NCBI RefSeq assembly: GCF_036279655.1 | Contig: NZ_DASUIT010000115.1 | Location: 10,214-74,213 of the forward strand | Length of the DNA stretch: 64,000 nucleotides | Source: Aquabacterium sp. | Lineage (GTDB): Bacteria; Pseudomonadota; Gammaproteobacteria; Burkholderiales; Burkholderiaceae_C | Direction of reading: 5' to 3' | In this document: positions 36,872-43,427 of the stretch, in pieces | Layout of the letters: every line of letters starts with the position of its first letter | Position numbering within the stretch: the first letter of the stretch is position 1 | The notes under the pieces: model-generated | Told to the model about the DNA's origin: nothing | The model's input: only the letters and a program-made list of their open reading frames with translations | The model's database searches: none | Position numbers and translations under genes: made by a program

Positions 36872-37738
36872 ATGCGCGCCGAGTCCTCTCCTTGGTCATC
36901 AGATCCCGCCTCTGCCCTGTCTCGTCGGGCGGCGGTGGCGCTGATGTTCGCCGCAGCATTGGCCGGCGTGGCGGGCCTGATGGCCTGGGGGCCCGTGGTC
37001 TTGAGGCCCCAGATGCATCAGTTTGCCGACACGCGTGTGTGGTGGGGTGTGCCATCGGGCGTCAATGTCTGGTCGCATCTGCCCTTGCTGCCGCTGGGCC
37101 TGTGGGGCTTGTGGCGGGTGACCCGGTTGCCCGCGTCCGAGCCCTTGCGTCTGGTGTGGGCCTGCTTCTTCGTGAGCCAGATGCTGGCCACGGTGGGAGG
37201 CATGGCCTATCACTGGCATCCCGGTGACCTGACATTCATCTGGGATCAGGTGCCGCGCTCGGCCGCATGCGCCCTGTTTGCCACGGCCTTCGTGGCCGAG
37301 CGGGTGGATGCCCGTCTGGGGCGGGTTCAAGGGGTGGGGCTGGCCCTGGTGGCCGTGGCACTGGCCATGCTGTGGTGGTGGGTCACGCGCCTGACCGGCG
37401 GCGCGGGGGACCTGCGTCCCTTGATCTGGCTGGAGTTCAGCCCGATCGGGTTGTTGGCGGCCGGGGCCTGGACCCTTCGGGGGCACTTGCTCTCTCGCCT
37501 GGATTGGCAACGCTCCGTATTGAGCTTTGCTGTGGCGCAGACGGTGGACTGGGCGGACCGGCCCATCTACGACTGGAGCGGGCAGTCCGTGAGTGGTCAC
37601 GCCTTGCGCCATCTGGCGCTGGCGGCCTGTGTCGGCTGGGTGGCCTGGCGTCTGGGGCGTTCGGCCTATCCAGTCGCCAGGCCGGCACGCGATCAGGCGA
37701 GCACGACGTCCTTGCCGGACAGCCGCTTGGCCAGTTGA
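36872..37738 (+). CDS. Multi-pass membrane hydrolase, alkaline-ceramidase-like (CREST-type)
   Basis: HQFADTR..WGVP...NVWSHLP, AYHWHP....IWDQVP, SGHALRH; about seven transmembrane segments. Start uncertain. Confidence 0.65.
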   Translation: MRAESSPWSSDPASALSRRAAVALMFAAALAGVAGLMAWGPVVLRPQMHQFADTRVWWGVPSGVNVWSHLPLLPLGLWGLWRVTRLPASEPLRLVWACFFVSQMLATVGGMAYHWHPGDLTFIWDQVPRSAACALFATAFVAERVDARLGRVQGVGLALVAVALAMLWWWVTRLTGGAGDLRPLIWLEFSPIGLLAAGAWTLRGHLLSRLDWQRSVLSFAVAQTVDWADRPIYDWSGQSVSGHALRHLALAACVGWVAWRLGRSAYPVARPARDQASTTSLPDSRLAS

Positions 37739-39306
37739 GTGGCCAGCCGGTTGGTGATGCCGTAAATCGACAGTTGCGGGTTGGCGCCGATGCTGGTGGG
37801 GAAGATCGAGCCGTCGTGAACCGACAGGTTCTCGATCTGCCAGTGCACGCCGTCCGGACGCACAACCCCTTGCTTTTCAGTGCCGCCCATCTGGCAGCCA
37901 CCCATGACGTGGGCGCTGCCCGCGCCGGTGAGGAAGGGCCTCATGTCCAGCTTGGCGATCTCGGTCTTGGCCTCGGCCCAGGAGGTGTAGTAGCGGGCCT
38001 GCTGGTGATAGGGCATGACCTTGTCGGCGCCGGCGGCGAACTGGATCTCGGCCATGGCCAGGAAGGAGCGGCGGAAGCCATCCAGAACGTACGGCGTGAG
38101 CGTGTAGTTCAGCAGAGGGGAGCCATCCATGTTGAGCATCACGCTGCCGCCCTTTGATTCAGGGTGGAAGCCGTCACGCATCAGCGAGAGCAGCAACTGG
38201 GTGTTCGGGTAGTTCTTGAAGCGTTCAGCCAGCTCCTGACCAATGCCCCCCAGCAGCACCGAGGTCAGGCCGGGGTGCATGGGCGTGGCTTCGATCTTGA
38301 AGCCGATGGGGCCGTCGACCGGGCCGGTGTGCAGGAAATGGTCGGAGTAGATGCTCTGGGGGGCGCCCATCCAGGCTTCGATTTTCTGGGGGTAGACCCC
38401 GGAAGTGAAGGACACCGGGTGCAGGAAGGTCCGCTTACCCAGCAGGTCGTGGGGATCCGGGGCCTTGGAGCGCTTGAGCAGGGCGGGCGAGTTGATGGCG
38501 CCGCCGGAGACGACATAGTGCTTGGCCGTGATGCGGGTGACCTTGTCGTTGACGCGATCGCCATTGATGCGGATGGCCACGCAGTTCAGCGATTGCACCT
38601 TGCCATCGCGGATGTCGAAGGACTCGGCACGGGTCTGGTGGTACAGGCGCGCGCCAGCCGTCAGTGCCGTCGGGATCGTGGTGATCAGCATCGACTGCTT
38701 GGCATTGGTGGGGCAGCCCATCCCGCAGGAGCCCGTGTTCCAGCAGCCCTTGACGTTGCGAGGAATGGTGTGCGCGGAGATGCCCAGCTTGGTTGCGCCA
38801 GTGCGCAGCAGTTCATTGTTCGCGTTGGGGGCAGCCTCCCAGGGGGCGACACCCAGGCGGCGCTCGGCCTGCTCGAAGGAGCCTGACAGGTTCTCGGTGG
38901 TGAAGTCCTTGAGACCGAACTGGTCCTGCCAGAACTTCAGGGTGTCCGGCGGTGTGCGGAAGGAGCTGGTCCAGTTGATGACCGTGGTGCCACCCACGCA
39001 GCGCCCTTGCAAGATGGTCACCGTGTTGTCAATGTTGGCGCGAGTCGCACTCTCCTGGTAGAGCGTGGTGTAGGCCTCGGTTTCCTTCTGGTTGAAGTCG
39101 GTGCTCGTCTTGAGCGGGCCTTCTTCCAGCAGGATCACGTCCAGGCCGGCGCGAGTCAGGATTTCGGCGGTGATGCCGGCGCCGGCGCCCGTGCCCACGA
39201 TGAGAACATCGCAGCTCAGTTGTTCGGGCAGGCCCTGCTCGCCATTGAAGACCTTCCAGTTGTGTTTCTGCTGGCCATCACGGAATACATCGGGGAGTTT
39301 GCTCAT
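37693..39306 (-). CDS. GMC oxidoreductase, long-chain alcohol oxidase type (LaoA-like)
   Basis: IVGTGAGAG, GRCVGGTTVIN, CWNTGSCGMGCP, AHVMGGC, DGSIFPTSIGANP; no signal peptide. Confidence 0.85.
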   Translation of the reverse strand: MSKLPDVFRDGQQKHNWKVFNGEQGLPEQLSCDVLIVGTGAGAGITAEILTRAGLDVILLEEGPLKTSTDFNQKETEAYTTLYQESATRANIDNTVTILQGRCVGGTTVINWTSSFRTPPDTLKFWQDQFGLKDFTTENLSGSFEQAERRLGVAPWEAAPNANNELLRTGATKLGISAHTIPRNVKGCWNTGSCGMGCPTNAKQSMLITTIPTALTAGARLYHQTRAESFDIRDGKVQSLNCVAIRINGDRVNDKVTRITAKHYVVSGGAINSPALLKRSKAPDPHDLLGKRTFLHPVSFTSGVYPQKIEAWMGAPQSIYSDHFLHTGPVDGPIGFKIEATPMHPGLTSVLLGGIGQELAERFKNYPNTQLLLSLMRDGFHPESKGGSVMLNMDGSPLLNYTLTPYVLDGFRRSFLAMAEIQFAAGADKVMPYHQQARYYTSWAEAKTEIAKLDMRPFLTGAGSAHVMGGCQMGGTEKQGVVRPDGVHWQIENLSVHDGSIFPTSIGANPQLSIYGITNRLATQLAKRLSGKDVVLA

Positions 39307-39836
39307 ATCGTCATCGGTCCAGGGTAGCCAGTCAGAGACCAGTTGTCGGGAATGGAGAAAAAGCCCATGCAGGTGATGGCCCGCGTGGCAACGTAAGTCG
39401 CGTTTTGGGCCATGCCGCTGGATTCGCGCAATTGCACCAGCAGAGCTCGGACTTCGTCATCGGTGGCTTCGTCCCATGAGGCCCAACGGGCCGTGATCAG
39501 ATAGCGGGTCGGTGCATTGGCCAGTGCGCCCGCCAGCAGACTGATCTGGTCGCGCTTGGCGGAGGGCATGGTGTTGATCAGTTTTTCCAGCTCGACCACG
39601 TAGCGGTCGAGTATGGCCTGGCGCTCGGCCGGGGCGGCGGGCAGCATGGGGCCCACGATGCCTCGGGCCAGGGCCCGGAAGACCGACTTGCCGTCCTGGG
39701 TCAGGTGTTGCTTGTCAAAGCCACGACGCCACCAGACACCACCGCCGATCGCACCGCCGACGGCCGCCAGGGCCAGGGCGGACTTGAGCAGCCAGCGTCG
39801 CTTGGGGGAGGCGGGGGAATTGGGTCCTGCACTCAT
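39303..39836 (-). CDS. Small Tat-signal partner subunit of the GMC enzyme (LaoB-like)
   Basis: KRRWLL twin-arginine motif, hydrophobic h-region, GYPGP C-terminus; ATGA coupling to the GMC gene. Confidence 0.7.
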   Translation of the reverse strand: MSAGPNSPASPKRRWLLKSALALAAVGGAIGGGVWWRRGFDKQHLTQDGKSVFRALARGIVGPMLPAAPAERQAILDRYVVELEKLINTMPSAKRDQISLLAGALANAPTRYLITARWASWDEATDDEVRALLVQLRESSGMAQNATYVATRAITCMGFFSIPDNWSLTGYPGPMTI

Positions 39837-41756: not shown

Positions 41757-41762
41757 GGTGCC

Positions 41763-43427
41763 TCAGCGGCTCAGGTCCTGCGCCAGCACCTGACGGATGT
41801 TGCGCTCGGCCAGAGCCGTGATGGTGACGAAGGGGTTGACGCCGATGGAGCCCGGGATCAGGGCGCTGTCGGTGATGTACAGGCCCTGATAGCCCTTGAC
41901 ACGCCCGTAGGCATCGGTGGCCTGTCCCATCACGCAGCCTCCCAGCGGGTGGTAGCAGAAGTCATCGGCAAAGATCTTGCCGTCGCCGAACAAGTCGGTG
42001 CGGTAGCGCGCGCCGATCTTGCTGTTGATGCGATCGAACAGGGTCTTGGCCGAGGCCACTGTGGGGGCGTTCTGGCTGCGGCTCCAGCGCAGCTTGACGC
42101 TGTCGCTGGCGGCATCGTAGGTGAAGCGGCCACGCTCGGGGTTGCGCGTGATCGCCAGGTACATGCTGATCCAGTTCTCGAAGCCGGTGGGCAGGGGCGT
42201 GATCTCGGCGAACACCGGGTTGCTGGGATTGTCCCAGTCATTGATGCCCATGGCGGGCATGGTCGATTGCACGGCGCCGGTGGTGTCCCAGATCTTGTTG
42301 GTGCGTGCGGCCATGACGTTGCCGTTGTGGCCCCAGCCTTCGCCCACGGCGGCGGGCAGGCGCGGCAAGGCGCCGGTCTCGCGTGCCTTGACCAGCAACT
42401 CGGTGGTGCCGATGCTGCCCGCACCCAGAAAGAGCTGTCCGCAGGCAATCTGCACATCAGCGAGGACCTGTCCGTAGGCATCAATGGCCCGCACACTGAG
42501 CAGGTAGTCCCCGTTGGCTTGCTGCTCGATGCGACGCACTTGCTGCAGCGTGTAGATGGTGACTTTGCCCGTGCCCACGGCATCGGCCAGATAGGTCTTG
42601 TCCAGGCTGAGCTTGCCGTGGTTGTTGCCGTAGATGACCTCCTGCGCCAGCGCCGAGCGGGGCACCTGCCTGGCCTCTTCCTGCTTCATGTAGTTGAAGT
42701 CGTAGACGCTGGGCACGAACACGGTCTTGAGGCCGGTCTTGATGGCGTGGTCCCGCGAGACGCGGGCATAGCGGTAGCAGGCGGCGGTTTCGAACCAGGC
42801 GGGATCGACGTGGTTCACCCCCAGGGTGCGGTTGGCCAGGGGGAACCAGGTGTCGTACATCTCCTGGGCGTCGACCAGGGGCAGCATCTGCTGGAAGTAG
42901 CTGCGCGGCGGTGTCACCGCCATGCCGCCGTTGACCAGTGAGCCCCCGCCCACGCCACGTCCGACATAGACCGACATCTCGTCGTAATTGACGCGGTCGA
43001 GCACCCCTGCGTAGCGGGGAATGTTGCTGTTGACGAGGTTCAGTCCCAGGAAGGTTTTCAGGGGGGCTTCGGTGCGGTCCTTGAACCACATGGCGCGCCC
43101 GTCGGGCGAGAGGGTTTTGCTGAAGATCGTGCCGCCGGTGGTGGGCTGGGTCCAGAGTTGGCCCATCTCCAGCATGACCACGGGGATGCCGGCTTCGGCC
43201 AGGCGCAGCGCGGTGACGGCACCACCGTAGCCGGTGCCCACCACGATGGCCGGGACGCGCCCCAGTTGACCCAGGGGGGTGCGAGGCGCGGCAAGGGATT
43301 CATTGAATCGGCGGGCACCGCTGGTGGCGGCCAGGGCATGGCTCGCATGGATGGTGCTCAGACCGGTGGCGGCAGCGGCCTGCAGGGCCATCTGACCGAT
43401 GAAACGGCGTCGGGTCAAAGGTGTCAT
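41763..43427 (-). CDS. choA: Tat-exported cholesterol oxidase, class I (GMC, non-covalent FAD)
   Basis: LTRRRF Tat motif; [56 protein letters not shown]. Confidence 0.85.

Follow-up and report, generated by a model that had tools for sequence, protein, structure and literature searches.

Lipid-related genes between ompA and hemW in Aquabacterium: probably a composite locus of three layers that differ in age

In the long-chain alcohol oxidation system LaoAB(CR) of Pseudomonas aeruginosa, a GMC flavoprotein subunit without a signal peptide is paired with a small subunit that carries a twin-arginine translocation (Tat) signal and is encoded just upstream; the lao-type operon of P. putida consists of a regulator gene, an aldehyde dehydrogenase gene, a laoB homologue and a laoA homologue (PMC13291428). 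The catalytic subunit of the flavin adenine dinucleotide (FAD) glucose dehydrogenase of Burkholderia cepacia (BcGDH) ligates a 3Fe-4S cluster through Cys212, Cys218 and Cys222, and its gamma subunit is a Tat hitchhiker (PMC6719666). Cholesterol oxidase, on the other hand, is the enzyme with which several actinomycetes begin the catabolism of sterols (PMC6678751); ChoA of Streptomyces sp. SA-COO (PDB 1B4V), a class I enzyme, has the GMC fold and binds FAD non-covalently. Genes whose products resemble these proteins, together with a gene for a distant relative of the human alkaline ceramidase ACER3 (PDB 6G7O/6YXH), stand side by side between ompA and hemW in the stretch of DNA studied here, a window of 64,000 nucleotides from contig C115 (NZ_DASUIT010000115.1, positions 10,214 to 74,213) of an Aquabacterium genome, which we call G000 and which is 92% complete.

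The five genes code for a seven-transmembrane (7TM) protein, the GMC flavoprotein, its Tat-signal partner, the acyl-CoA ligase FadD and the cholesterol oxidase ChoA, and a sequence-only reading had interpreted them as a single accessory block for scavenging eukaryote-type lipids. We consider it probable that the locus is rather a composite of three layers that differ in age. The first would be an old, genus-core lipid module, made up of the partner-GMC operon and a canonical fadD that is divergent to it; the second, a subclade-specific gene for the 7TM protein, placed between ompA and the GMC gene; and the third, choA, a family that would have entered Aquabacterium once, probably from an actinomycete, and would since have moved between at least three chromosomal sites, landing between fadD and hemW in the lineage of G000.

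This view is drawn mainly from gene presence and order in a sample of 60 genomes of the genus Aquabacterium. An orthologue of the GMC gene (≥67% identity) is present in 56 of the 60, a fadD copy stands beside the GMC pair in nearly all of them, and the order gyrA-ompA-GMC-partner-fadD-hemW is kept in distant species; ompA adjoins gyrA in all loci of the genus that were compared. Aquabacterium sp. CECT 9606 (G047), A. olei (G021) and genome G001 thus share the arrangement gyrA-ompA-(7TM)-GMC-partner-fadD-hemW-rdgB-PP2C-kinase, where the 7TM gene is found in G047 only and choA is absent between fadD and hemW in all three, the gap between these two genes in G047 being 15 bp. The 7TM gene was found in 21 of the 60 genomes, beside the GMC gene wherever both share a contig, and a choA orthologue (≥65% identity, fragments counted) in 29. 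Co-occurrence across genomes, laid down beforehand as the check on a common block, is not seen for these two genes: choA occurs in 11 of the 21 genomes with the 7TM gene and in 18 of the 39 without it (Fisher p = 0.79, a value that is descriptive only because the genomes are related), and in most species it lies elsewhere. Genome G042, a carrier of both genes, is part of the tally; leaving it out gives 10/20 against 18/39. The idea of one accessory block is therefore not upheld by our data: the GMC gene, the partner gene and fadD belong to the genus core, and the 7TM gene and choA behave as unassociated single-gene indels.

The attraction of a common block is easy to see. All five products plausibly act on lipids, the genes lie within about 7-12 kb in the subclade of G000, G056, G064 and G071, and the linkage of ompA to ubiG has been lost; one can also draw a scheme in which a ceramidase would free acyl chains, fatty alcohols would be oxidised by LaoAB, the acids would pass to FadD for activation, and sterol-rich membranes would be opened by cholesterol oxidase. 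That the five genes were acquired or assembled as one unit for scavenging eukaryote-type lipids is nonetheless very improbable in our judgement, since three of the five are genus-core genes in conserved synteny, the two variable genes are unassociated and choA sits at other loci in most species, the strands alternate, no compositional anomaly, tRNA gene, mobility gene or flanking repeat accompanies the genes, and a clear steroid ring-degradation marker was not found. The locus illustrates that genes of related function can come to stand in an orderly row through accidents of history, and that neighbourhood alone would lead one to over-annotate a lipid-scavenging island.

The lost ompA-ubiG linkage itself deserves a closer look, as it had been taken to indicate a synteny break at this point. 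It is true that ubiG does not follow ompA here; in G000 it lies on a separate contig (C57). Among the eight other families of the order in which an ompA orthologue was found, four have ubiG immediately after it and three others have ubiG no more than 2 kb away; the linkage is seen in no sampled Aquabacterium. As it is missing from all of them, and the order ompA-GMC-partner-fadD-hemW is genus-wide, the loss of the linkage is ancestral to the genus. The break is thus real, but it is not local to this genome.

It could also be argued that choA and the 7TM gene arrived independently and that selection now keeps them beside the module, through shared lipid-responsive regulation or a shared membrane microdomain. 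The constant adjacency of the 7TM and GMC genes would fit such a view, as would the conserved motif in the intergenic region between the partner gene and fadD (see below) and the retention of choA between fadD and hemW in at least four genomes; inside one subclade, however, adjacency is accounted for by common descent. Moreover, choA is co-oriented with hemW, behind which it lies by 88 bp, and not with fadD, and relatives carry a MocR-type regulator gene and low-GC DNA that looks foreign between fadD and choA. Exact contigs from the soil metatranscriptome run X18 fall on ompA, the GMC gene, fadD and rdgB and none on the 7TM gene or choA; as evidence this is very weak, coming from one run that possibly bears DNA and says nothing firm on expression. 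Taken together, we think it unlikely that selection of this kind maintains the arrangement, and return to the three-layered composite.

The core layer of this composite centres on the GMC flavoprotein and its 177-residue partner; the stop of the partner gene and the start of the GMC gene share an overlap of 4 bp. The GMC protein lacks a signal peptide, and the N-termini of its homologues go straight into the FAD fold; the partner, on its side, carries a KRRWLLK motif in which the two arginines are invariant among 13 homologues, all of them encoded directly upstream of a GMC gene. No match to the partner was found in Pfam or NCBIfam, and the ESM Atlas gave leads only ("Tat pathway signal protein"; PF13618 on 14% of one cluster), while a homologous-protein search with the GMC protein returned only near relatives labelled "GMC family oxidoreductase". 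The Tat component gene tatC is present in G000. Beyond the genus, 120 genomes of the order were covered, 10 of which have a GMC orthologue (≥50% identity). The pair stays together at the nine order-level loci examined; tblastn detected the partner in six of them, directly upstream of the GMC gene and each time with the arginine pair (6/6); an aldehyde dehydrogenase gene just precedes the pair in two of the nine, giving the aldehyde dehydrogenase-partner-GMC order of P. putida PP_5120-5122, and a gene for a lipase-like alpha/beta hydrolase follows it in two.

Several features suggest that the GMC protein is more likely an Fe-S FAD dehydrogenase than an oxidase. Its motif C188-x5-C194-x3-C198 is invariant in 15 homologues and has the same spacing as Cys212/218/222 of BcGDH, and the closest solved folds of its model are the large subunit of fructose dehydrogenase (E 7.5e-25) and the FAD glucose dehydrogenase of B. 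cepacia (E 4.9e-21). The likeness to BcGDH (gamma-alpha-beta complex, PDB 6A2U) and to the Gluconobacter fructose dehydrogenase (7W2J) thus extends over fold, cysteine spacing and the small Tat hitchhiker subunit; sequence identity, in contrast, is 17-19%, and the gene context in Aquabacterium is one of lipids, not sugars. No gene for a tri-haem cytochrome c is present in the locus, where all genes between 36.0 and 44.7 kb were identified. Of the original description as a GMC oxidase with a Tat partner, the family and the partner hold, while a dehydrogenase with a 3Fe-4S motif seems the likelier enzyme.

When the GMC protein was modelled together with partner residues 40-177, the interaction prediction score from aligned errors (ipSAE) was 0.88, while the best of three controls scored 0.00. 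Of 80 solved complexes 58 attain the mark applied, as do 2 of 110 mismatched pairs, and such a pass is to be read as likeness rather than as proof of binding, because similar complexes have already been solved. Contact agreement between runs was ≥97%, the partner had a predicted local distance difference test (pLDDT) score of ≥86, and the interface takes in the cysteine loop. With its signal-less GMC subunit, the small Tat-signal subunit encoded just upstream and the tight complex predicted by modelling, the pair resembles LaoAB(CR), from which it differs in having fadD as its divergent neighbour. Architecture, gene context and the model of the complex lead us to read it as a LaoAB-type dehydrogenase, an Fe-S flavoprotein that faces the periplasm; the likeness to LaoAB had been drawn earlier. 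Most likely the partner would bind the folded GMC subunit, with its FAD and 3Fe-4S cluster in place, and ferry it through the pore of the Tat system; facing the periplasm, the enzyme would then probably oxidise long-chain alcohols, the substrate that we infer for it, and deliver the electrons to the respiratory chain rather than to O2. For the long-chain alcohol step in these bacteria, which use oil and lipids, a genus-core two-subunit enzyme of this kind, encoded divergently to fadD, makes a good candidate.

FadD would activate the resulting fatty acids, or imported ones, for beta-oxidation. The protein matches NF005463 with 967.3 bits (cut-off 869) over residues 11-570 of 574, a score that marks it as a canonical long-chain acyl-CoA ligase; three further fadD paralogues are found in G000. 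The expression "divergent FadD" used for it in the earlier interpretation is accordingly apt for its orientation towards the GMC operon and not for its sequence. The intergenic regions between the partner gene and fadD of seven Aquabacterium genomes align poorly except for TGTTGCAGAAT-N3-TG, the only block of invariant columns, which may serve the divergent pair as an operator or a promoter element. Downstream of this motif, a hairpin with a T-tract is found at 39999-40021, in the closest relatives only. The fadD of G064 (L011:13132-14908) looks truncated or frameshifted after residue 455, which may reflect decay or an assembly error.

The 7TM protein, which forms the second layer, had been described as a ceramidase-like membrane hydrolase. 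It has no direct match in Pfam (E ≤ 10) or NCBIfam, yet it matches protein P0045 at E 2.7e-18, and P0045 passes the ceramidase family PF05875 with 35.4 bits (cut-off 32.5). The best match of its AlphaFold2 model (pLDDT 85.6) is ACER3, both with Foldseek (E 2e-3, template modelling score 0.54) and with VIA-align (Z 16.7, root-mean-square deviation 3.7 over 207 residues); the margin in the latter is only modest, because generic bundles of G protein-coupled receptors, which fill the next rows, score Z 14.8. Residues H115, H244, H248, D212 and D230 are invariant in the homologues, and the Asp of a WDQ motif is mostly retained; alkaline ceramidases have three His as metal ligands and Ser/Asp residues that position water, and the invariant histidines may correspond to the ligands of ACER3. 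Shared with ACER3 and PF05875 are thus the 7TM bundle and the conserved histidines of a YH motif and of an SGHxxxH motif on the last helix. Different are the lack of a direct Pfam match, the identity to ACER3 of 10-13% and the residue four positions before the first His, which is Ser in the PF05875-positive P0045 (SAYYH) and Gly in 17 of 17 close homologues from the Aquabacterium subfamily. A search of PDB sequences with the family profile gave a chance match only.

Given the link to PF05875 through P0045, the top rank of ACER3 among folds and the invariant histidines, "ceramidase-like" is a fair family label, as transitive homology and predicted fold agree. We suggest that the protein probably hydrolyses a membrane lipid, as a zinc amidase or esterase. 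The Aquabacterium host is not known as a producer of sphingolipids. The family is nearly limited to Aquabacterium-like genomes and represents a ceramidase/CREST branch whose active-site motif is altered.

For the third layer, the identity of the protein is best considered before its mobility. ChoA can be aligned over its full length with the Streptomyces enzyme, residues 56-553 matching residues 4-502 of the 1B4V chain (E 3.8e-224, ~65% identity; E 9.8e-183 against 1COY), and it has the N-terminal GxGxGG. The motifs FAEITP, CYHPLGG and GVNPF(VT) are retained and aligned with those of 1B4V that hold Glu361, His447 and Asn485, an assignment for which we assume a numbering offset of +5. As in Streptomyces, secretion would be by the twin-arginine route, the N-terminus (TRRRFIG...ALA) being a twin-arginine signal. 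By homology, motifs and N-terminus, then, the gene product is predicted to be a Tat-exported class I cholesterol oxidase, in agreement with its first annotation. Unlike its Streptomyces counterpart, this choA is a lone gene in a betaproteobacterial host, at chromosomal sites that change within the genus, and no choP-like P450 gene or polyene cluster was seen beside it.

The site between fadD and hemW is occupied by choA only in G000, G056, G071 and UBA1834, and probably in G064. In most species choA is flanked by a MocR regulator gene on one side and by a gene of the nitronate-monooxygenase family (NMO) on the other, at a site that adjoins pyridoxamine-phosphate-oxidase-like and bioA/bioD genes; one subclade has a hybrid histidine kinase gene inserted there, and the A. 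lacunae/fontiphilum group shows yet another context. In G000 the MocR/NMO site falls on contig ends, the last 20 bases of C65 (L111) being identical to the first 20 of C105 (L112). No choA lies between the NMO and MocR genes at this joint, and the site is apparently empty; strain heterogeneity in the sample may be behind the contig break. The relatives with choA at the fadD/hemW site have a different MocR gene between fadD and choA. A MocR/GntR-aminotransferase gene is convergent with choA at both kinds of locus (L015:1745-3157, L011:15368-16777 and L027:8024-9436; L017:7259-8746). Joint travel of a MocR gene with choA was considered and rejected: the MocR genes of the two locus types are not orthologues, as they are only 25-27% identical, and the recurrence of such a gene beside choA is either coincidence or a recurrent association. 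A low-GC stretch (0.56-0.60, compared with ~0.65) with a gene for a dynamin-like GTPase (PF18709) lies upstream of choA in G071 (contig C66; L016:1-6200), between fadD and choA, and looks like inserted foreign DNA. In G020 (C60:2513-3382) choA is fragmented, with an internal TAG, which may be decay or an assembly error.

To place the family more widely, a set of 185,579 species, each represented by one genome, was scanned with peptide patterns taken from the query. The scan found 418 relatives; among the best 80 loci, 22 are of the Aquabacterium type (66-80% identity), and the remainder all come from Streptomyces, Amycolatopsis, Kitasatospora or Prauserella (61-68%). A search of 16 further families within the order turned up no choA orthologue. 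The 24 Aquabacterium-type sequences form one clade (support of 82 in the Shimodaira-Hasegawa-like approximate likelihood ratio test) in a three-way split with two actinomycete groups. A single old transfer, which would have come from the Actinomycetota, followed by movement within the genus, fits these data best. A Streptomyces-type cholesterol oxidase is thus widespread, if patchy, in a common groundwater and biofilm genus, with an apparent inter-phylum origin and with movement inside the genus; in the literature searched, we found no paper that names both Aquabacterium and cholesterol oxidase.

Once outside the cytoplasm, ChoA should turn 3-beta-hydroxysterols into 4-en-3-ones and release H2O2 there. 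Could this be the entry into a sterol catabolic pathway, with sterols as a carbon source? The role of cholesterol oxidase as first catabolic step in several actinomycetes (PMC6678751) speaks for it, as does a second class I paralogue on contig C56 of G000. The steroid 9-alpha-hydroxylase marker KshA_C, however, was not found in G000, and across the genus it gave only marginal, partial matches of 22-28 bits in 13 of 60 genomes, unrelated to the presence of choA. Steroid genes are likewise missing beside choA and the paralogue at every locus examined, the neighbours being regulator, vitamin, Fe-S and housekeeping genes (AraC regulator, PEP-CTERM, isc). A catabolic function of choA is quite unlikely on this evidence. 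Because there is no clear KshA_C marker and there are no steroid gene neighbours, we favour, with low confidence, a role outside the cytoplasm, either on foreign membranes that contain sterols or in detoxification; ChoA would more likely damage or modify such membranes, or detoxify, than feed a catabolic pathway.

One could go further and speculate that an actinomycete choA crossed phyla into the ancestor of Aquabacterium, duplicated or diversified there and now moves as a naked gene between convergent genes, serving as a secreted weapon against eukaryotes that is lipid-responsive where it stands beside the LaoAB-like/FadD module. We put little weight on this as a description of the locus; if it were true, groundwater and sediment betaproteobacteria without steroid catabolism would have gained an attack on the membranes of grazers, fungi or algae.

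The paralogue on C56 is a class I cholesterol-oxidase-like gene as well (C56:19392-21089; L110:9393-11090, minus strand), with 46% identity to choA and a match to 1B4V at E 8e-137. Placed behind a gene for an AraC/cupin regulator, it adjoins a gene for a PEP-CTERM protein and iscS-iscU-hscA, and has counterparts in many genomes of the genus.

Some points weigh against the composite as described here, or against parts of it. The core and the variable parts are all lipid-related, and some functional convergence in the subclade is possible. With regard to choA, more distant proteobacterial homologues may lie beyond the best 80 loci of a scan that used patterns from the query; the tree was rooted on one long-branched paralogue, the C56 gene of G000 (46% identical); and the direction of transfer was taken from distribution because the three-way split does not settle it. 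As to the dehydrogenase, neither an aldehyde dehydrogenase gene (for LaoC) nor a TetR regulator gene (for LaoR) stands next to the pair in the window, its neighbours being the 7TM gene and fadD; the complex model may have passed through recall of solved gamma-alpha complexes such as 6A2U; and it is architecture and context alone that point to a long-chain alcohol as substrate. Finally, KshA_C is a single marker, and sterols could be degraded by a route that it does not capture.

The gene content described above is secure. Scans of open reading frames (ORFs) and of protein families confirm five lipid-related genes between ompA and hemW, and the strand series +, -, -, +, - bears out the earlier view that they are not one operon. 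Features and coordinates are collected in Table 1.

Table 1. Features of the ompA-hemW region, with positions in the window
Feature	Position	Strand	Evidence or remark
gyrA	33190-35841	-	ORF listing and family scans
ompA (Bordetella-type OmpA-family lipoprotein)	36090-36746	+	NF045787, 302 bits (cut-off 200); PF00691; left flank
7TM membrane protein, distant alkaline-ceramidase/CREST-like putative metal hydrolase	36872-37738	+	PF05875 via intermediate; fold
GMC flavoprotein, putative LaoA-like FAD dehydrogenase catalytic subunit	37693-39306	-	PF00732, PF05199; without signal peptide
177-residue partner with twin-arginine signal (LaoB-like / gamma-subunit-like putative hitchhiker)	39303-39836	-	KRRWLLK motif
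Invariant block TGTTGCAGAAT-N3-TG between the partner gene and fadD	39975-39992	.	Alignment of seven Aquabacterium genomes
fadD, long-chain-fatty-acid--CoA ligase	40053-41756	+	NF005463, PF00501, PF13193
choA, predicted Tat-exported class I (GMC-type) cholesterol oxidase	41763-43427	-	Homology to 1B4V
hemW (radical-SAM haem chaperone)	43516-~44733	-	TIGR00539, 367 bits; approximate start; right flank

An assembly or binning artefact is ruled out as a source of the arrangement, because the junctions ompA/7TM/GMC and fadD/choA/hemW are bridged by contigs from three independent runs of different studies, from soil, groundwater and the subsurface, with 0-8 mismatches. Across the genes, GC lies at 0.63-0.69 and GC at third codon positions at 0.74-0.88; the flanks are alike, and no compositional island appears. 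No tRNA gene was found nearby, and no meaningful direct or inverted repeats were found flanking choA. With parts that vary independently, a composition like that of the flanks and neither tRNA gene nor flanking repeats, the region does not have the make-up of a genomic island. A promoter scan around the genes found nothing, and terminator-like sites are no more frequent there than in shuffled sequence.

The choA gene of G000 is closely packed, 6 bp from the fadD stop codon and 88 bp from that of hemW. The stop codons of fadD and choA fall inside a perfect 6-bp inverted repeat, CTGAGG-TG-CCTCAG, at 41754-41765 of the window, and there is no terminator between these two convergent genes. Past hemW come rdgB and genes for a PP2C phosphatase and a Ser/Thr kinase. 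At 43516-44778, the ORF that holds hemW extends far upstream into rdgB, and the expected start region has no ATG; because of this, translation likely starts at a GTG or other codon near 44733.

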